In this document: piece by piece, positions 5,164-20,774 of the stretch | Numbering within the stretch: position 1 is the first letter of the stretch | Layout: each line of letters begins with the position of its first letter | Virus record (IMG/VR): IMGVR_UViG_2690316224_000007 | Direction: 5' to 3' (one strand) | Length of the DNA: 24,162 bases | Origin: a virus | Taxonomy: Duplodnaviria > Heunggongvirae > Uroviricota > Caudoviricetes | Made by a program: the position numbers and the translations under genes | The notes under the pieces: generated by a model | Databases searched by the model: none | Told to the model about the DNA's origin: nothing | Seen by the model: the letters and a program-made list of their open reading frames with translations, nothing else

Positions 5164-5964
5164 TTAACCGCGCTTCGCCTTCTGCGTCGCGGTGGTTTTT
5201 CGTGTTGCAGGCTTCCGCGTTGTCTTTTTACTTTTGCTGCTTTCGTCCTGCGCCTGCTGTGCGCTGGCGTCTTCTGGTTCGGCTGCGGAATCGGCTTTTT
5301 TCAGGGCGCGGGAAAGGGTTGCAATCTCGCGTTTCACACCTGCATTCGGGTTCAGGTGCATTGCTTCGCGCAGCAGCTTCAGTGACAGGGCCATGCTGTC
5401 CGCATCACTCAGGCCACGACGGGCAAAGGCGCACGCCTTGCATAATTTGGCGCGCACTTCGTCCGGCATGTCCTGGTCGGTGACAATCTCCCGGAGGGTA
5501 TCCAGTGGTTCGATAAAGGCGGACAAATCCGCGTCGGCATCCGTCCCGGCCTGCGTCAGTACCGGGTTGCAGATTTCTTCGGTCAGCACTGTGGCAGCAG
5601 TACGGCCAAAGTTATCCGGCATAATGAGGTTATGACGGACCACATACGCACCAATACGCAACGCCAGCGGAAGATCGCCGCAGTCAATCGCCCACACCAT
5701 CAGCGTGGCAATCACTTCATCCTGCTGCCCGCCGTCAGCCTCCAGCGTTCCCTCAATCCAGCCGGAAAAGTCCGGCAACAACTCTTTTTTGATGGCGGCT
5801 TTCGCGCTTCTGGCCTGTACGCCCTTAAGCCGGGCCTGTGCCAGACGCAGACGATACAGCACCTCTTCATGCGCGGTACGCGCGGCGTGGTCCACGCCTT
5901 CATTCGCCCGGCCTGCGCGCTGTGCCATCACGTTCTGCCAGTGTTGCTGTGCAGGAGTAATCAT
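5164..5964 (-). CDS. M: Terminase endonuclease (small) subunit gpM
   Basis: 266-aa ORF after N in P2 order, with a basic Lys/Arg/Thr-rich C-terminal tail. Confidence 0.82.
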   Translation of the reverse strand: MITPAQQHWQNVMAQRAGRANEGVDHAARTAHEEVLYRLRLAQARLKGVQARSAKAAIKKELLPDFSGWIEGTLEADGGQQDEVIATLMVWAIDCGDLPLALRIGAYVVRHNLIMPDNFGRTAATVLTEEICNPVLTQAGTDADADLSAFIEPLDTLREIVTDQDMPDEVRAKLCKACAFARRGLSDADSMALSLKLLREAMHLNPNAGVKREIATLSRALKKADSAAEPEDASAQQAQDESSKSKKTTRKPATRKTTATQKAKRG

Positions 5965-6009: not shown

Positions 6010-7062
6010 TTAGCTGTCGGCGAACTTCAGGCCAGTGACCATCGCGCACTTGCCATAGTCTTCAACGACATAAGCGTCATTGATGGACTGGTAGGTGGCG
6101 ATGCGGTTGTATTCCGGTTCGTCTTTCATCAGACGACGCATTGAACCTTTCTGCCAGTAAATCGACAGGTTGTTGAACGAGGTGATCAGCATCGTTGCAT
6201 CCGGGAAGAACGGCGCAAGGAACACACCCAGCCCGCCAATGGTGCGCGATGACAGGATGAGCTGTCCGGCGAGTAATTCCGCATTGGGATTCTGGCCGCT
6301 GATGCTGTTCAGCACGGGCAGACGCAGCGAGTTAAACAGGTTGCGCCCCATAATCACCACGAGGTCGTCAGCTTCCTTGTGCCATTCATCCAGCAGGGAT
6401 GAGCGTGCGTCCTGAACCAGTGCATCAGCGTTCGCATACTTACCCGCGTGCGCCACGGTGTTGTCCATGTTGCGGGAGGTCAGCGTCACGTCATTCATTA
6501 CGCGCGCGCTGGCATTGGTTCTGATGTGCTCCAGCCACCCCACGTTAACGTCCTGAAGCAGCTTGTTGGTGCTGAAGTTGGATTTTTCCGCGTGTGACGT
6601 GCCGTTAAAGCCGATCATGATGCGGTCAAGCGCCACCTGTCGGGCAATCTGTGCGCTGATGCGGGTCTGGAAGTCATTGTGCGCCGCCCAGGCATCAAGC
6701 TGCGGATACGAAATAAACGTGTCGTAGTTCACCTGCTCACACTGGTACTGACGGGACTTCAGGTCGACAGCGTTAATCGGGTTGCGGCGATCTGTGCCGT
6801 CATAACTGGTATTTGTGCGCGCAATCGGCCCGGTGGTGTCCATGAGGACTTTTTCGCCTTTCTGGTCGGTCACACCGATCACGTTAATTTTTTTTGTAAG
6901 TTCGGTGCTATCCTTTGAGGCGTTTTCAAAACGCTGCTGCACCGAGGGTTCCACGGTAAATCGCGATACCAGCCCAGAAACCGGGATATTGTTAATCGAC
7001 GCCTGTCGCGTCATGTAGCAGCCCAGCTTGTTACGGGCATTATCTGACATCACCAGATTCAT
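6010..7062 (-). CDS. N: Major capsid protein gpN
   Basis: 350-aa ORF sharing blocks with P2 N as recalled (FTVEPSV, GFNG, VGWL, PFFPDATMLIT, NLSIYWQ, YVVEDY). AAGGAG SD upstream of ATG at 7062. Confidence 0.9.
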   Translation of the reverse strand: MNLVMSDNARNKLGCYMTRQASINNIPVSGLVSRFTVEPSVQQRFENASKDSTELTKKINVIGVTDQKGEKVLMDTTGPIARTNTSYDGTDRRNPINAVDLKSRQYQCEQVNYDTFISYPQLDAWAAHNDFQTRISAQIARQVALDRIMIGFNGTSHAEKSNFSTNKLLQDVNVGWLEHIRTNASARVMNDVTLTSRNMDNTVAHAGKYANADALVQDARSSLLDEWHKEADDLVVIMGRNLFNSLRLPVLNSISGQNPNAELLAGQLILSSRTIGGLGVFLAPFFPDATMLITSFNNLSIYWQKGSMRRLMKDEPEYNRIATYQSINDAYVVEDYGKCAMVTGLKFADS

Positions 7063-7085: not shown

Positions 7086-7922
7086 TCAGAAGTCAGCCAG
7101 CTGGTCGGAGGCTGCGCCCGTTGCGGTGAACCGGTTCTGCGGATCGCCGTCCTGCGTGCGCAGTTTTTCCTTCAGTGCTGTCAGCTCTGTGGTCAGCGAA
7201 GTGATTTTCTGGCTGTCCTGCTGATGGCGGGTTTCCAGTGCATTAAAACGGTCGATAATATCGGCCTGTGACGTTGCGACACCTTCCACCGCTTCCTGAA
7301 TACGGGAGAAACTGGCGTCATCCGCTTTGCGGCCACGGCCAATAATCCCCATAACGCGGTTAAACCACTGGGTGCCTTCTTCCTGACGTTGTTCGGTGAG
7401 TTCGATAAGTTCTGACTCCATAGCGGCGGTGAACATCGCCACGTCTCCCTGCTGACAGTTGAATGTCATCAGTTGCATACGTTGTTGTGCCGCAAAGGCC
7501 AGACGTTCCGTGCCCAGGCTGGCGGGGGTGTCGGTCATTGCCAGCCCGCGCAGGTAAGGGCCTCCCGTGATGGTTGACTGTGGTTCCAGCTCAATACTGG
7601 AGTAAATTTTTTTACCATCGTTAAGCAGGGACATCATGCGAGCGGTCGGCTCAATTTCGGCATACAGTGCCGTGCGGCCTGCCAGCGGGCCATCGGTTAT
7701 GTCTTCGGTGCTCAACCCCACAACATCGCCCATAGCGGAAAACTCGCTACCGGGGAGTGGTGACAGGATGTGCTCAATATTCACACGTGCACCATAAACG
7801 GACGGGTTATAACTGGTGGCGGCAGCTTTCAGCATGTCGCCGTTGATTTCGCGCCCGTCTGCCGTCACACCGGAGACAGCCACGCGAAACTTTTTGCGGG
7901 ATGTCTTTTTTTCATTAGTCAT
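7086..7922 (-). CDS. O: Capsid scaffolding protein gpO
   Basis: Start chosen at ATG 7922 (MTNEKKTSRKKFRVAVSG), which has an AGAGGGG SD 8 nt upstream; the longer track start at 7955 has no SD. Product has the P2 O-like DPASLGTE block and a coiled-coil C-terminus. Confidence 0.82.
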   Translation of the reverse strand: MTNEKKTSRKKFRVAVSGVTADGREINGDMLKAAATSYNPSVYGARVNIEHILSPLPGSEFSAMGDVVGLSTEDITDGPLAGRTALYAEIEPTARMMSLLNDGKKIYSSIELEPQSTITGGPYLRGLAMTDTPASLGTERLAFAAQQRMQLMTFNCQQGDVAMFTAAMESELIELTEQRQEEGTQWFNRVMGIIGRGRKADDASFSRIQEAVEGVATSQADIIDRFNALETRHQQDSQKITSLTTELTALKEKLRTQDGDPQNRFTATGAASDQLADF

Positions 7923-7955
7923 AGTTTTTGCCCCTCTGACTGGTTCTTCAGTCAT

Positions 7956-8076: not shown

Positions 8077-9828
8077 ATGATTCAGGACGCTTTTGTGCGC
8101 CAGCGTGCGCGGCAACTTTACTGGCAGGGTTATCCGCCCGCAGAAATATCACGTCTGATGGGAATAAACCCGAACACGATTTATGCGTGGAAAAAACGCG
8201 ACCAGTGGGATGAAACGCCACCCGTGCAGCGTGTCACGCAGTCCATCGATGCGCGCCTCATCCAGCTTACTGAAAAACAGAATAAAACAGGTGGTGACTT
8301 CAAGGAAATAGACCTGCTGACCCGGCAGCTTAAAAAGCTGCATGATGGCCAGCCGGATGTGATGGCCGCAGGAAAGAAAGGCCGGGCGAAAAAACTCAAA
8401 AATCATTTCACGCCGGAACAGATTGCCGCACTGCGGGAAAAAATCATCAGCAGGCTGGAGTGGCATCAGCGGGGCTGGTTTGACTCCCTGACCCTTTGCA
8501 GGGAAGCCGGGATACGTAACAGGATGATCCTGAAATCCCGACAGATTGGGGCGACCTGGTATTTTGCACAGGAAGCACTGCTGATGGCGCTGCGTGACGA
8601 TGTGGCACAACCTTACCAGCGTAACCAGATTTTTTTGTCTGCGTCGCGTCGTCAGGCGTTCCAGTTTAAAAGCATTATTCAGAAGGCTGCGGCTGAAGTT
8701 GATGTGGAGCTGAAAGGGGGCGATAAAATCATCCTCTCCAACGGCGCAGAGCTGCATTTTCTTGGTACTTCTGCTGCGACGGCACAGTCCTACACGGGCA
8801 ATTTTTATTTTGATGAATTTTTCTGGGTCAGTCGCTTTGCTGAACTGCGCAAGGTGGCTGGCGCTATGGCAACCCTCAGCGGACTGCGGCGCACCTACTT
8901 CTCCACGCCATCCACCGAAACGCACGAGGCATACGCCTACTGGAATGGCGACCGCTGGAACGAGAAAAAGGCCACGCATAAACGCCAGCGTTTTTCTGTG
9001 GACTGGAAAACGCTGCATAACGGGCTTATCTGCCCTGACCGGACGTGGCGGCAAATTGTCACGCTGGAAGATGTGGTTAATCACGGCTGGAAACACACCG
9101 ATATTGACGAAATTCGTGATGAAAACACCGAAGACGAGTTCCGCAATCTCTATATGTGTGAGTTTGTCCGCGAAGGGGAATCGGCATTTAACCTGAATAT
9201 CCTGATTGGCTGCGGTGTTGACGGATACGACGACTGGAAAGACTGGAAACCTTTTGCTCCCCGCCCGATGGGGAATCGTCCGGTATGGATTGGGTATGAC
9301 GCAAACGGCAGCAGTGGAAACGGCGACAGCGGCGCTGTGTCCGTGGTGGTTCCTCCGGCTGTTCCTGGAGGCCGTTTTCGAACGGTGGAGACGCGACGCG
9401 TTCAGGGGCTGGAGTTTGAAGAACAGGCCAGAGTCATTGAAGAGTTCACGTGTCGCTACAACGTGGAACACATCGGCATTGATGTGACGGGCGGGAACGG
9501 GGAGGCTGTTTATCAGATAGTGAAACGGTTTTTCCCTGCTGCTATTCCGTACACCTTCACGCTGTCATCAAAACGGTCGCTGGTACTGAAAATGCTGCAA
9601 ATAATGCGTGCCGGGCGGTGGGAATATGATCGCGCCGAACGCGAGCTGGTCGCAGCCTTTAACGCCGTGCGTAAGGTGAAAACACCGGGCGGCTTTATCA
9701 CTTACGAAACGGACCGTGCGAGGGGGATCAGCCACGGCGACCTTGCGTGGGCAACCATGCTTGCTGTCATTAACGAACCGATTGGCGGCGAAGGGGAAAA
9801 CGAGCGTTTTACGGTTATGGAGTTCTGA
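8077..9828 (+). CDS. P: Terminase ATPase (large) subunit gpP
   Basis: 583-aa ORF, P2 P-sized, with a strong SD; stop overlaps the Q start (TGATG at 9826-9830). Confidence 0.9.
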   Translation: MIQDAFVRQRARQLYWQGYPPAEISRLMGINPNTIYAWKKRDQWDETPPVQRVTQSIDARLIQLTEKQNKTGGDFKEIDLLTRQLKKLHDGQPDVMAAGKKGRAKKLKNHFTPEQIAALREKIISRLEWHQRGWFDSLTLCREAGIRNRMILKSRQIGATWYFAQEALLMALRDDVAQPYQRNQIFLSASRRQAFQFKSIIQKAAAEVDVELKGGDKIILSNGAELHFLGTSAATAQSYTGNFYFDEFFWVSRFAELRKVAGAMATLSGLRRTYFSTPSTETHEAYAYWNGDRWNEKKATHKRQRFSVDWKTLHNGLICPDRTWRQIVTLEDVVNHGWKHTDIDEIRDENTEDEFRNLYMCEFVREGESAFNLNILIGCGVDGYDDWKDWKPFAPRPMGNRPVWIGYDANGSSGNGDSGAVSVVVPPAVPGGRFRTVETRRVQGLEFEEQARVIEEFTCRYNVEHIGIDVTGGNGEAVYQIVKRFFPAAIPYTFTLSSKRSLVLKMLQIMRAGRWEYDRAERELVAAFNAVRKVKTPGGFITYETDRARGISHGDLAWATMLAVINEPIGGEGENERFTVMEF

Positions 9829-10874
9829 TGAGCAGAAAAAATAAAAAAGTGCGCATGAGTTCACGCATTGATCTCGCTGATGCGCTCAGGAAAGAATCAT
9901 CGCTCAGTGCATTCACATTTGATGGTCCTTATCGCCTGACCGGGCATGACCTGCTGGACAATATGTACTGTGCTGATAACGGGCGGTGGTATGAAACCCC
10001 GGTGGACTGGTACAGTCTGGCAAGAGCCGCCCGGCAAACGTCCTGGCATCAGTCTGCGCTTTACTTTAAGCGTAATGTATTGCTCGGGTGCTACATCCCG
10101 CACCCGCTGCTTTCCCGGCAGGATTTCTCGGCGCTGGCGCTGGACTGGTTTGTGTTCGGTAACGCATTCCTTGAGCTTCGGAGCAATATGCTCGGCGAAC
10201 CGCTTAAATTACGGCACGCCCTGGCGAAATACATGCGACGCGGAAGCGATCTTGAATCATGGTGGTATGTGCAGGATGGCAAGGACGCGTTCCAGTTTCG
10301 CCCTGGCAAAGTGTGCCACCTGATGAATCCGGATATTAACCAGGAAATCTACGGCATGCCGGAATATCTTGGCGCATTACTCTCGGCCAGCCTTTCTCAT
10401 TCGGCGGACATGTTCAGAAAACTGTACTACGACAACGGATCCCACGCCGGGTGCATCATCTACATCGGTGCAGCGCAGGTAAACCGCGAAAGCATGGACT
10501 CCCTGAAAGAAACGTTACAGGGTGCGCGTGGTGGTGGTGCATTTAAAAACGTGCTCATTCATGCGCCCAACGGGGGCAAAGAAGGGGTGCAAATTTTGCC
10601 GTTCCAGCAGATCACCGCAAAGGATGAGTTCATGAATGTTAAGGCGGCATCCCGTGATGATGTGCTGGCTGCGCACCGCGTTCCGCCGCAACTGATGGGG
10701 GCGATGCCGGGCGAAAAAAGTGCGTTTGGTGATGTGGAGAAGGCCGCGCGGGTTTACGCAATTAACGAGCTGATGCCCGTCATGGAGGCCATGAAGCACA
10801 TCAATGACTGGCTTGGCGAAGAGGTGATCCGCTTTAACCCTTACGCACTGTTAGACACCCAGCCCACATCCTGA
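9828..10874 (+). CDS. Q: Portal protein gpQ
   Basis: 348-aa ORF translationally coupled to P; size and position as P2 Q; ends facing the expected cos region. Confidence 0.9.
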   Translation: MSRKNKKVRMSSRIDLADALRKESSLSAFTFDGPYRLTGHDLLDNMYCADNGRWYETPVDWYSLARAARQTSWHQSALYFKRNVLLGCYIPHPLLSRQDFSALALDWFVFGNAFLELRSNMLGEPLKLRHALAKYMRRGSDLESWWYVQDGKDAFQFRPGKVCHLMNPDINQEIYGMPEYLGALLSASLSHSADMFRKLYYDNGSHAGCIIYIGAAQVNRESMDSLKETLQGARGGGAFKNVLIHAPNGGKEGVQILPFQQITAKDEFMNVKAASRDDVLAAHRVPPQLMGAMPGEKSAFGDVEKAARVYAINELMPVMEAMKHINDWLGEEVIRFNPYALLDTQPTS

Positions 10875-10897
10875 CGCGCTTCGCTTGTCTGCTGCTT

Positions 10898-10920
10898 CGC
10901 CGGGGCATAAAAAATTTATG
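10898..10920 (+). other. Perfect 10-bp-stem hairpin (GGGGCATAAA-AAA-TTTATGCCCC), 24 bp after the Q stop
   Basis: Read directly from the sequence. No T-tract follows on either strand, so it is not a canonical intrinsic terminator; may be an RNA processing or protein-binding element. Confidence 0.4.
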
Positions 10921-11328
10921 CCCCGACTCTCCAGCTCCTGTATCAGTCAGATAATTTCACGACGCTTTCCTGCTGATTGCCATCATCGACAGTCAGACTC
11001 TTACGCAATCCCACCGCGTTGACTGCATGTTCTCGCCGTCTCAGTGCGATTTTGACGGCCTTACCTTTCACCCCATCAAATCAAAAGCCCTCACGTCTTT
11101 TTCACGCTCAGCGTGAGAAATACAGCCATTCTGTTCTATCTCTGCGACATCGTTCAGGGAATGCTATTTACCCCCTGAAACGCGGGCTGTTCCCCCGTCA
11201 CCTGCGCGCAGAAAAAACGCGTTTTTTTGTGCACGTACGGATCCTTGACGGATCCAGCCACCACGCGGGCCGGTAGTACAAAAAGTCGTTCAAAAAAATT
11301 GTGCAAACTTGTGCACTATCGTGCAAAC

Positions 11329-11351
11329 AAAAAAAGCGCCTTATCGGCGCT
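11329..11351 (-). terminator. Rho-independent terminator (minus strand)
   Basis: Minus-strand reading AGCGCC-GATAA-GGCGCT followed by TTTTTTT, a few nt after the stop of the 11361..11630 ORF. Confidence 0.55.
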
Positions 11352-11360
11352 TCAAAAGTA

Positions 11361-11630
11361 TCAATTGTTGCTGTGTATTAATCGCCAACCACGAACATAT
11401 GCTTCATAGGCATCTCTGTGCCTTACAGTTCCAGCCTGGCTAAACGGAATGTTAGCTAAAACTAAATCATTCTGAGCCATAGCGCGTCCTTCAAGCGCAT
11501 CTTTTATGCCTAGCTCAAAAGCACAGGCAGCGCATTTGTGCCGACCTTCTTGTCCTTGATATTCAGGGAGAGACAGAAATGTTGGATTATAACGATGAGG
11601 GTTCTTGCAAATACCTGTTTTAGCCCGCAC
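11361..11630 (-). CDS. Hypothetical protein (89 aa, GTG start; contains C-x-x-C)
   Basis: ORF in the AT-richer islet with a GAGG SD 8 nt before a GTG start and a terminator immediately downstream. No recognisable homology; could instead begin at an internal ATG (39 aa). Confidence 0.35.
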   Translation of the reverse strand: MRAKTGICKNPHRYNPTFLSLPEYQGQEGRHKCAACAFELGIKDALEGRAMAQNDLVLANIPFSQAGTVRHRDAYEAYVRGWRLIHSNN

Positions 11631-11994: not shown

Positions 11995-12306
11995 TTACTC
12001 AGGAAATAACGCCCGGATATTCCCAGCCATCTGGCTGGTTATCTTAGCCACTGGTGCAGACTGTGCTTCAAACTTTTTTGAGCTGATTTGTGTCACAGGT
12101 AATATCTCATCATCAGCCCATGCGGCCAGTCGGTAAGCCTCTGCCGGATTCGTCTTCAGAAGTGCCAGCCCGGCCAGAAAAGCCACGCGTTGGCCGCTTT
12201 TGCGGGCTTCTGGTGTAAGGCTGTCCAGCCAGGCGCATGCTTCTCCTTCGTTCTTGACGGCAGCTGGCTTCAGATAGAAACTTATTCTTCTGGTTGGTGT
12301 CGTCAT
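11995..12306 (-). CDS. parR: ParR/StbB-like centromere-binding protein (ribbon-helix-helix type)
   Basis: 103-aa ORF 4 nt downstream of parM, with an AAGGAG SD in the parM 3' end. Blocks RRISFYLKP, ACAWLDSL..E, RVAFLAGLAL and NIRALFPE align with plasmid R1 ParR as recalled. Confidence 0.65.
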   Translation of the reverse strand: MTTPTRRISFYLKPAAVKNEGEACAWLDSLTPEARKSGQRVAFLAGLALLKTNPAEAYRLAAWADDEILPVTQISSKKFEAQSAPVAKITSQMAGNIRALFPE

Positions 12307-12310
12307 TGGT

Positions 12311-13270
12311 TTACTCCTTGTTCATTGCGTACAGCCCATTAACCAGAGCAAATTGTGGCACCCCGTCCGCGATGAAAGTCGCATTAACTCCGCAGGCTTC
12401 GCGGATAGCGGGTGCCACAATCTCCGCCCCGCCACCGACAACCATCACCCGCCCGTAACCCGAAAAAACCGCCAGAGCGCGGATCACGCGTTGTTTCAGT
12501 GTTTCTTCCTTTTCACGAATAATCGCCATCAGGCTGGCGTAATGCGCGTCATTGTGGATGTGCTGGCGCAACCAGGCTTCATCATGGCGATGTTCGATAA
12601 TGGTATTGGCGATGTGGTGACTGGTGCGCATACCGTTAGTGGCCATCACCGACAGTACGGCATCGGCCATCAGAGAAACGCCTACGTGTGGATCGCAAAA
12701 CACCTGGCTGATACCTGCCAGTTGCCCCTGAACCTTTGCCACATCCAGCGTGGTTCCGCCCAAATCCACAATCAGCAGGGATTCAAACGGACTCATGTCA
12801 GCCAGTGCCTTAAAGCCAGCCGGAATGGATTCAGGCATAACCCGCACGTTACGGATAGTGAATGCTTCGCCGTTCTGGTACTCCACCGGGCGCATAACGT
12901 TCGCTTTTTTGCGGTTGATGTTGGCCATGTCCGGCTGTGCGTTTGTGTCGAAATACTCGCTCAGTGGCAGGGTGACAACCACATCCACCTCCCGTGGCGT
13001 GATGCCTGATTTGACCAGCGCGTGATGAATGGCAATGACATTCACATCGCTGTACTGGTATTGCGTGTCGGTCGTCTGGACAAAGCGATCGCTGACCGGA
13101 TCAAAACCATAGCGCACGCCATCAAGCATGTAGTTCGCGGGCTGCGTGCCACCGAACGGCGCAGACCATTCCGACTTGAAGCTGTTCGGGCTGATGGCGT
13201 TGCGGCGTTCGCCGTTCTCAGTCCATGCCAGCTTGATGTTGGTGGAGCCGTCGTCGATACAAATTCTCAT
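12311..13270 (-). CDS. parM: ParM/StbA actin-like segregation ATPase
   Basis: 319-aa ORF with a near-complete set of ParM blocks matching R1 ParM as recalled: IDDGSTNIKL, SPNSFK, YSDVNV, HHAL, TLPL, RKKAN, FTIRNVRVMPESIPAG, SLLIVDLGGTTLD, GVSL, LKQRV, FSGYGRVMVVGGGAE, LVNGLY. AGGAAAA SD before the ATG. Confidence 0.9.
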   Translation of the reverse strand: MRICIDDGSTNIKLAWTENGERRNAISPNSFKSEWSAPFGGTQPANYMLDGVRYGFDPVSDRFVQTTDTQYQYSDVNVIAIHHALVKSGITPREVDVVVTLPLSEYFDTNAQPDMANINRKKANVMRPVEYQNGEAFTIRNVRVMPESIPAGFKALADMSPFESLLIVDLGGTTLDVAKVQGQLAGISQVFCDPHVGVSLMADAVLSVMATNGMRTSHHIANTIIEHRHDEAWLRQHIHNDAHYASLMAIIREKEETLKQRVIRALAVFSGYGRVMVVGGGAEIVAPAIREACGVNATFIADGVPQFALVNGLYAMNKE

Positions 13271-13301: not shown

Positions 13302-13415
13302 TTTACGGGATTTTTAAATCCCGTTTTCGCCTGTTTTGTGCGCGCTTCATATATCGCGGCGCGTTTTTTGCTCATTTACGGGATTTGTGAATCCCGTTTC
13401 TGTCTGTTTTTTGTT
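13302..13415. repeat. Two ~39-bp direct repeats, each with a palindrome (ACGGGATTTTTAAATCCCGT / ACGGGATTTGTGAATCCCGT), spanning the A stop codon and the parM upstream region
   Basis: Repeat 1 at 13302..13340, repeat 2 at 13377..13415, 75 bp apart; each has CCCGTTTy and CTGTTTT sub-motifs. A TTAATTAAT -10-like element lies between repeat 1 and the parM SD. Confidence 0.5.
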
Positions 13416-17211: not shown

Positions 17212-17636
17212 TTACTTCACGGGAACGAACGGAACAGCGGTGTTACTGGTCATGTATTGCGGCAGCGTGCCGTTCCATTTGTTGATCGCTTCCAGCTCCA
17301 TAACGCCGGGATTCTGGCGCAGAGCTTCGCCGCGTAAACGAATGGCGTCGGCTTCAGCCTGGGCTTTTGTGCGAATGGCATCGGCCTGTCCGGCAGCTTC
17401 TGCGCGCAACATGTTGGCTTCTGCTTCGCGCTGCTTGACTTCCTGTTCGCGTTGCAGGGTTTTCTGGTTTGCCGTGACTTTGGCATTAATGCTGTCGATA
17501 ACGGTTGGCGGGTATTCCGGCTTACCCACATAAGAGAGGCTCATTACCTGAATGCCGATAGGTGTCGTTTCTGCCTGAATGTCTTTAAGTGCTGAATCCA
17601 GCAGTTCAGACTTGCCACCGTCGATAAATTTATCGN
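17212..17636 (-). pseudogene. 3' fragment of the SPFH lipoprotein gene (copy 1), truncated at an N
   Basis: Colinear with 21890..22314 of the full-length gene; coding continuity ends exactly at the ambiguous base at 17637. Confidence 0.65.
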
Positions 17637-20768: not shown

Positions 20769-20774
20769 NNNNNN
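20769..20774. other. NNNNNN: probable scaffold gap or contig join
   Basis: Flanked by SPFH-internal sequence on the left and the A 5' end on the right. Confidence 0.8.

Follow-up and report, generated by a model that had tools for sequence, protein, structure and literature searches.

In phages of the P2 family, the cohesive-end site, cos, sits between gpQ and gpA and adjoins a hotspot of defence and cargo genes, and it is the only DNA that P2 and P4 have in common (PMC9122126). The cos of P2 and P4 has been described as having a 55-bp conserved core (Ziermann & Calendar 1990, as cited in PMC5694545 and PMC3931495). The 19-nt 5′ cohesive ends of P2, 186 and P4 have been mapped, as have the ends of RSA1 of Ralstonia and phiCTX of Pseudomonas; phiCTX has a 21-nt end, GCAG-type repeats annotated R3–R6 and an annotated IHF site around cos. 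In phage lambda, cos is made up of cosN and cosB, with three 16-bp R sites bound by gpNu1 and a site at which IHF bends the DNA, and cosB lies on the terminase-gene side. Our search of the literature found no published cos for P88.

The window, by which we mean the whole 24,162-nt stretch of DNA analysed (IMG/VR record IMGVR_UViG_2690316224_000007), is a P88-like prophage (Xuanwuvirus, Peduoviridae), and the region considered here, 10875–11360, spans the interval from the stop of the portal gene Q to the cargo hotspot. The gene order is M, N, O, P, Q, this region, cargo, ParM/StbB and gpA, identical to that of P88, and the window's O, N, M, P and Q proteins are 35–49% identical to their P2 counterparts. 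P88 itself is an inducible, plaque-forming phage (PMC5285337). Rightward of the region come an 89-aa cargo ORF (phrog_3941), the StbB/ParM partition cassette and gpA; given this order, the region spans the interval in which P2-family phages keep cos and their hotspot. A BLAST search with 10800–11420 found the Escherichia phages 500465-2 (99.2%), 520873, 503458, P88 and P884B11 and Citrobacter phiSM, all of them Xuanwuvirus or kin within Peduoviridae. P88 carries the region at about 90–93% identity, and the homologue of the large terminase gene is annotated as terminase large subunit in both P88 and P884B11. Among complete E. coli genomes, 1142 of 5426 (about a fifth) contain the 486-bp region, with most matches ending at query position 451, i.e. 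window 11325. The coding potential of 10875–11360 amounts to non-ATG ORFs without a family match, and the two small "hypothetical proteins" annotated here in P88 have no conserved counterpart.

Table 1. Features of the P88-like packaging locus and its flanks, in window coordinates
Feature	Position	Strand	Description
Small terminase subunit gene (gpM homologue)	5164–5964	−	PF05944 (5.6e-37); phrog_74 (7.8e-82); 36% identity to P2 gpM
Capsid gene (N homologue)	6010–7062	opposite to P and Q	
Scaffold gene	7086–7955	opposite to P and Q	
Terminase large subunit gene (gpP homologue)	8077–9828	+	44% identity to P2 gpP over 593 aa
Portal gene Q	9828–10874	+	47% identity to P2 Q, 49% to 186 W; portal annotation in P88 relatives
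Hairpin CGGGGCATAAA-AAA-TTTATGCCCCG	10901–10925	+	11-bp arms, 3-nt loop; starts 27 nt past the Q stop
Lineage-specific spacer, Q terminator to cos	10926–11160		Includes palindrome 11102–11116
Palindrome TCACGCT-C-AGCGTGA	11102–11116		
Predicted cosN	11184–11205	−	G-rich strand GGTGACGGGGGAACAGCCC (reverse complement of 11184–11202)
Cargo-side flank of cosN	11202–11228		CTGCGCGCAG, then A6CGCGT7
Palindrome CTGCGCGCAG	11202–11211		
Palindrome AAAAAACGCGTTTTTT	11212–11227		
Proximal TTGTGCA	11227–11233	+	GTGCA at 11229–11233; about 28–31 nt from the predicted nick
Direct repeat ACGGATCC, two copies	11237–11244, 11248–11255		In the spacer between proximal motif and array
A-tract (TCAAAAAAAT) and three GTGCA	11289–11325	+	Distal part of the putative packaging signal
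GTGCA copies of the array	11301–11305, 11311–11315, 11321–11325		Exactly 10 bp apart
Intrinsic terminator of cargo gene	11333–11353	−	Cargo module, outside cos; sequence beyond 11325 differs between lineages
Cargo ORF, 89 aa	11361–11630	−	cos-adjacent hotspot; phrog_3941 (6.3e-49; family of unknown function); no Pfam match

The site is a P2-family cos, and so of a kind already known, with a cohesive end that has diverged from that of P2, and we consider it quite probable that 10875–11360 as a whole is the cos region of a P88-like phage, comprising a Q terminator, a spacer, cosN and four GTGCA motifs that would serve as a gpM-bound, cosB-like recognition and ruler element. The original prediction had relied on synteny to put cos after the Q stop and before the cargo genes, having recognised no P2 or 186 cohesive-end sequence by eye; the placement was right, and a diverged P2-family cohesive-end sequence lies at about 11184–11205, between the portal gene and the replication and cargo genes of a phage that has gpP and gpM genes. 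Aligning the region to known P2-family cos sites, as had been proposed, gave a divided answer. An nhmmer profile of the P2, P4 and 186 cos alone missed the site, its best matches in the window (E = 0.33) lying elsewhere, so that homology to the P2-type cos rests on intermediates. We therefore cite a bridge profile made from eight intermediate lineages, with the window, P2, P4 and 186 all left out; the intermediates came from the loci of a portal alignment, and their portals are 50–68% identical to that of the window. The best window match of this profile is 11169–11329 (E = 1.3e-19), and it also matches the mapped cos junctions of P4 (6.4e-13), 186 (4.9e-12) and P2 (7e-8). The columns that hold the 19-nt cohesive end of P2, P4 and 186 fall on window 11187–11202, with three gap columns, and it is from these columns that the position of cosN follows. 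In other words, homology to the P2-family core and its 19-nt cohesive end is present, and it is transitive.

The intermediate lineages make this connection readable. At the cosN position they have ...AGCGCGCGCTTGCTCCCCCGCCTCGCC|TGCGCGC...TTTTTGTGCAC..., and the reverse complement of their core is GGCGAGGCGGGGGAGCAAG, whose first 12 bases are the same as in P2 (12 of 12); other intermediates read GGCGTGGAGGGGAGACAAT, which is 186-like. The Novemvirus phiT5282H, with a portal 69% identical to that of the window, has DNA that can be aligned to the window over 11181–11331 only, with exact matches at GGGCTGTTCCCCCGTCACCTGCGC, TTTTTTGTGCA and the A-tract plus GTGCA array; GGGCTGTTCCCCCGTCACCTGCGC is common to the window, phiT5282H and the intermediate lineages. 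We infer from this alignment that GGTGACGGGGGAACAGCCC is a diverged version of P2's GGCGAGGCGGGGAAAGCAC and that staggered cleavage at 11184–11205 would leave a 5′ cohesive end reading roughly GGTGACGGGGGAACAGCCC. The nicks are predicted to within about 3 nt: an alternative overhang spanning 11187–11205 would read GCAGGTGACGGGGGAACAG, and nicks inside 11184–11205 would give ends such as GGTGACGGGGG... or GCAGGTGACGG.... The predicted end GGTGACGGGGG... of the window agrees with P2's GGCGAGGCGGGG... at 13 of 19 positions ungapped, with an apparent deletion of 2–3 nt. The cohesive end of RSA1, a phage whose host, like that of phiCTX, is distant from the window's, opens GGTGAGG, and that of the window would open GGTGACG. 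Like the cos of P2, 186 and P4, the window site follows the portal gene, adjoins the cargo hotspot and has a G-rich cohesive end beside GCGCGC. Its flanks differ: P2 has a hairpin, CCGCCCCG-N-CGGGCGG, beside the nick where the window has CTGCGCGCAG and A6CGCGT6, and the ACGGATCC pair of the window occupies a spacer that in P4 and 186 holds a GC-rich inverted repeat. None of the phage records examined starts or ends at cos, and neither a phage record nor a contig shows the two physical ends together. Two apparent ends were set aside, the start of the P884B11 record (equivalent to about 11280), which looks arbitrary, and an end in one contig (L121), which is a storage-chunk boundary.

Four GTGCA motifs lie in the same orientation on the cargo side of cosN. 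The original prediction had noted three of them, 10–11 bp apart, and suggested a terminase recognition array; the three are present at a spacing of exactly 10 bp, and a fourth copy, at 11227–11233, had been missed. The window has one such triple array, against an expectation of 0.01 from dinucleotide shuffles, and all three TTGTGCA heptamers of the 24-kb window fall inside the region. It is the geometry that ties these motifs to known sites. Measured on the cargo side from the experimentally defined nick, TGCA starts at −123, −111, −101 and −29 in P2; at −124, −111, −101 and −29 in P4 (also −75 and −35) and in 186 (also −120 and −35); at −129, −110, −100, −35 and −29 in RSA1; and at −109 and −28 in phiCTX, with GCAG-type repeats between. 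The intermediates have TGCA at −121, −111, −101 and −29, and the window and phiT5282H, if the nick is set 5′ of GGTGACG, at −123, −113, −103 and −31, or, for the window with an overhang of 11187–11205, at −120, −110, −100 and −28. Between these groups of phages the DNA separating the motifs cannot be aligned. We found no published criterion for such an arrangement and derived one here from the mapped phages, in which one TGCAY stands at about 29 nt and a triple array at about 100–124 nt from the nick, on the cargo side; the window has both, its proximal TGCAY being followed, as in P2, 186 and P4, by an A/T run. The TGCAY triple array is unique within each whole sequence checked. The differences are small: the window motif is TGCAC where P2, 186 and P4 have TGCAT, and the spacing of the array is 10/10 rather than 12–13/10. 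By hand count, the proximal motif is the counterpart of the TGCAT with which the 55-bp P2/P4 core begins, and the distal array falls outside that core and is without annotation in the P2, 186 and P4 records.

How well is this arrangement kept? A scan of viral contigs for the cos core gave at least 120 loci, and a portal gene lies upstream in all 114 of the listed loci that have enough flank. In a non-redundant alignment of 28 lineages, GCGyGGGCTGTTCCCCCGTCACCTGCGCGC is nearly invariant (a 19-mer within it being invariant by construction), the proximal motif TTTTGTGCA is invariant, TCAAAAAAATTGTGCAAAtTTGTGCActaTtGTGCa is conserved and conservation past 11325 is zero. Among 170 unique P88-type cos blocks, drawn from viral, genome and metagenome contigs, TGCA stands at +38, +110, +120 and +130 from C11192 in 74–83%; the 10-bp-spaced triple array is at its fixed distance in 151 and the proximal TTGTGCA is present in 149. 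The exceptions to the array are for the most part either unrelated GC-rich contigs that match by chance or arrays in which one base has changed. When each species was represented by a single genome, a scan located 22 loci, spread over Enterobacterales in genera that include Serratia, Pantoea, Erwinia, Kosakonia, Citrobacter, Enterobacter, Symbiopectobacterium and Salmonella.

Two mosaic genomes (L119 and L062; IMG/VR UViGs 2778261593_000009 and 2648501669_000002) show a shortened form of the site. The DNA that they share with the window is 11142–11234 only; identity to the window's proteins is 30% for the portal, 36% for the large terminase subunit and 24% for the small one, and their early region is P88-like by gene order, with 940-aa and 319-aa ORFs of the same sizes as the window's gpA and ParM. 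They lack 11235–11310 through a deletion between two TTGTGCAC copies that leaves two GTGCA motifs. If this variant is viable, the full triple array is not essential and two adjacent motifs could substitute for it, and for this reason we are less confident that the array is required than that the site is cos. The same two genomes have an Ogr-like gene between Q and cos, with a module junction about 40 bp left of cosN.

A further line of evidence comes from elements in which the cos block is complete and neither a portal nor a terminase gene lies within 4–7 kb. There are three, in Escherichia sp. MOD1-EC7003 (NZ_PTRE01000030.1), in Apirhabdus apintestini (CP138906.1) and on a 12.7-kb MAG contig (QAKE01000006.1). 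They encode an integrase, a Toprim primase (phrog_1139), an Ash-family protein, AlpA, an Ogr/Delta zinc finger, a 363-aa protein, a 236–264-aa protein without a family match and a P2-family major capsid homologue that is 36–38% identical to the window's N. What they have in common with the window at the DNA level is 11160–11325, 11173–11325 or 11181–11325, always ending at the third GTGCA. Since the shared stretch stops exactly there, the array belongs to the packaging signal; in sequence terms, this argues that the whole block, array included, is a cis-acting packaging signal, and the array is most likely a putative small-terminase (gpM) site, in line with the terminase recognition site that the original prediction had suggested. 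The relationship recalls that of P2 and P4, in that a P4-like element (integrase, AlpA, Toprim primase, Ogr/Delta) shares with a P88-like phage only a cos block of about 150–165 bp. Unlike P4, the new element has a P88-type cos and its own P2-family capsid homologue, and the 236–264-aa protein stands in place of recognisable sid and psu. The unit of about 12.2 kb appears to be a satellite with a capsid gene of its own, a type for which our literature search found no description. The MAG contig consists of a 12.2-kb unit with a perfect 507-bp terminal repeat, which starts, after nine adapter-like bases, at CTGTCCCCCCGTCACC, the equivalent of 11187 and a predicted nick position. Two metagenome contigs, one of 32.5 kb and the other of 31.8 kb, begin left of that position, by 6 and 25 nt. 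The three starts (equivalents of 11162, 11181 and 11187) suggest physical ends near cosN, and they disagree with each other too much to fix the nick.

These observations can be put together in a mechanism, the protein identities, stoichiometry and packaging direction of which are proposed by analogy with lambda cosB. The gpM homologue would bind the TGCAY motifs, all in one orientation, on the cargo side, the future mature right end. The A-tract and the spacer of about 72 bp would let the DNA wrap or bend, and the large subunit (the gpP homologue) would then be set over cosN, with the proximal motif about 29 nt away, and make the staggered nicks. The motifs with their bound gpM homologue would thus be a ruler that positions the nickase. 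Such a site would be like that of lambda in having a nick site with a one-sided array of short repeats within about 50–170 bp. The analogy is functional only: the window motifs are 5–7 bp long and flank the nick on the side opposite to the terminase and portal genes, and we rejected membership of the lambda cosB type for want of any sequence similarity and because the A-tract misfits the IHF consensus. More tentatively, TGCAY at about 29, 101, 111 and 121–124 nt could be a family-wide Peduoviridae cosB ruler, common to P2, 186, P4, RSA1 and P88-like phages and apparently not yet described, by which the small terminase would place the nick, with the P88-type end forming a separate packaging-specificity group that capsid-encoding P4-like satellites of about 12 kb exploit; we would call this combined proposal possible and stop short of calling it probable.

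What else might read the GTGCA motifs? The block could still be a packaging signal if a host architectural protein or another DNA-bending phage protein, rather than the small terminase, bound them. A conserved A-tract abuts the array, the phiCTX record places its IHF site and R3–R6 repeats around cos, and a spacing near the helical repeat suits any protein on one face of the DNA. Against such a protein, the motif does not fit the IHF consensus (by eye, TCAAAAAAATTG is off WATCAANNNNTTR by one base of spacing), and the motif itself changes with the phage, being TGCAT in P2, 186, P4 and RSA1, TGCAC in the P88 types and GCAG in phiCTX. Since it varies between lineages, a co-evolving phage protein fits better than a conserved host factor, and we judge a host or bending protein to be an unlikely reader.

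Much less probable is that the array is mainly a promoter or operator for neighbouring cargo or early genes and lies beside cos by position only. In P2 the TGCAT array is about 30–55 nt upstream of mapped old-tin transcript starts, on the opposite strand, and since it overlaps the −35 of the old promoter, a transcriptional role in some phages is possible. In the window, though, the cargo gene is oriented toward the array and has a terminator of its own (11353–11333), and no conserved ORF starts on either side. The array has also stayed unchanged while the cargo past 11325 was replaced in dozens of lineages, and satellites, both P4 and the new family, keep it beside unrelated genes. As an observation on P2 itself, the distal TGCAT array (L006 1054–1080; P2 record 33453–33479) overlaps the −35 region of a promoter deduced from the old-tin transcript starts, and for this reason packaging signal and cargo promoter may share DNA there. 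Least credible of all, the repeats might be recombination substrates whose microhomology drives cargo swaps at the edge of the hotspot, as a break in homology right after the third repeat in most E. coli genomes, the deletion between TTGTGCAC copies in the two mosaics and a published speculation that cos ends promote exchange at the hotspot (PMC9122126) might suggest, but recombination needs neither fixed distances to the nick across phages with unalignable intervening DNA nor retention by satellites, and a sharp boundary is what purifying selection on a cis-acting signal beside free cargo would be expected to leave. Other candidates were also tried and discarded. The array is not the parC centromere of the ParM/StbB cassette, as it lies downstream of the cassette and beyond the cargo, and it is also found in P2, 186, P4 and RSA1, which are not known to have ParM; by eye, no Ogr-type late-promoter element (TGT-N12-ACA) and no CRP, LexA or DnaA box fits it.

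The remainder of the region can be divided into conserved and lineage-specific parts. The hairpin past the Q stop had been given as a 10-bp stem at 10898–10920; it is real, with longer arms and somewhat different limits (Table 1). As RNA it folds with −26.4 kcal/mol (z = −4.6; equalled by 0 of 200 shuffles), it is nearly invariant in 64 E. coli-type sequences, and other lineages have, as read by eye, a different hairpin at the same place. The P2 and 186 records annotate terminators, tQ and tW, at the matching position, and the hairpin is probably the terminator of the P-Q operon and the analogue of these; it folds strongly and has no U-tract, so that we infer this role rather than read it directly. 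In the spacer from there to cos we detected no conserved function; it cannot be aligned outside the E. coli lineage and its ORFs match no family, and we propose that it is dispensable. The Q-to-cos interval tolerates insertions of about 600 bp at 10850–10871 and 10937–10947 in relatives; the inserts are about 635 bp (e.g. loci L021, L059 and L238, the last from Salmonella) or about 580 bp (locus L044).

The description of the region as dense in palindromes was sound as to density. With perfect inverted repeats counted if the arms are 7 or longer and the loop 5 or shorter, the 486 bp hold 6 counts (4 distinct), compared with 0.21 in 1000 shuffles, and 4 of the 18 such repeats of the whole window fall in this 2% of its length, an enrichment of more than 10-fold against both the shuffles and the remaining window. 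The palindrome at 11102–11116, the two adjacent ones beside cosN and the ACGGATCC direct repeat had all been correctly described. What the description did not capture is that most of the palindromes lie outside the conserved signal and belong to the E. coli lineage only. The 11102–11116 palindrome, A6CGCGT6 and the doubled ACGGATCC are ruled out as conserved elements by their absence elsewhere: in the flank of cosN, CTGCGCGC and the T-run are conserved and the palindromes as such vary, and of the ACGGATCC pair, which, GGATCC being a palindrome, doubles as a 6-bp inverted repeat, the first GATC alone is widely kept, the second copy being confined, like A6CGCGT6 as a palindrome, to the E. coli lineage.

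Location of cosN and its recognition block has several possible uses. It fixes the true genome ends and sets the boundary of the defence/cargo hotspot at 11325, and a P88-type cos predicts which satellites these phages can package. The fragment 11160–11325, about 165 bp, could be a compact basis for P88-type cosmids or transducing particles. Additionally, the conserved TGCAY geometry offers a testable model of how P2-family small terminases recognise cos. Two things seem to us most worth following: the distal TGCAY array, which is conserved, and the P4-like satellite that has this type of cos and encodes a capsid protein.

Other features of the window deserve mention. Between 14332 and 22720, blocks of about 3.1–3.3 kb are repeated at 95–99% identity (14332.. 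= 17637..; 16097.. = 19387.. = 20775..), with N at 17636 and 20769–20774, exactly at the borders of the repeat blocks. As a result gpA is present twice (940 and 609 aa) and a pair made up of an Ash-family ORF and a 121-aa ORF three times; the repeats probably reflect faulty scaffolding or assembly, or alleles stitched together, and not biology. On the minus strand at 11995–13270, between the cargo hotspot and gpA, the ParM (StbA)/StbB plasmid-partition cassette, also present in P88, hints at a plasmid-like or segregating stage of these phages. Two similar palindromes with 8–9-bp arms (ACGGGATTT..AAATCCCGT), at 13305–13324 and 13378–13397, lie on either side of the gpA stop, in the stretch that separates the gpA 3′ end from the parM start, and are a possible parC or regulatory site.
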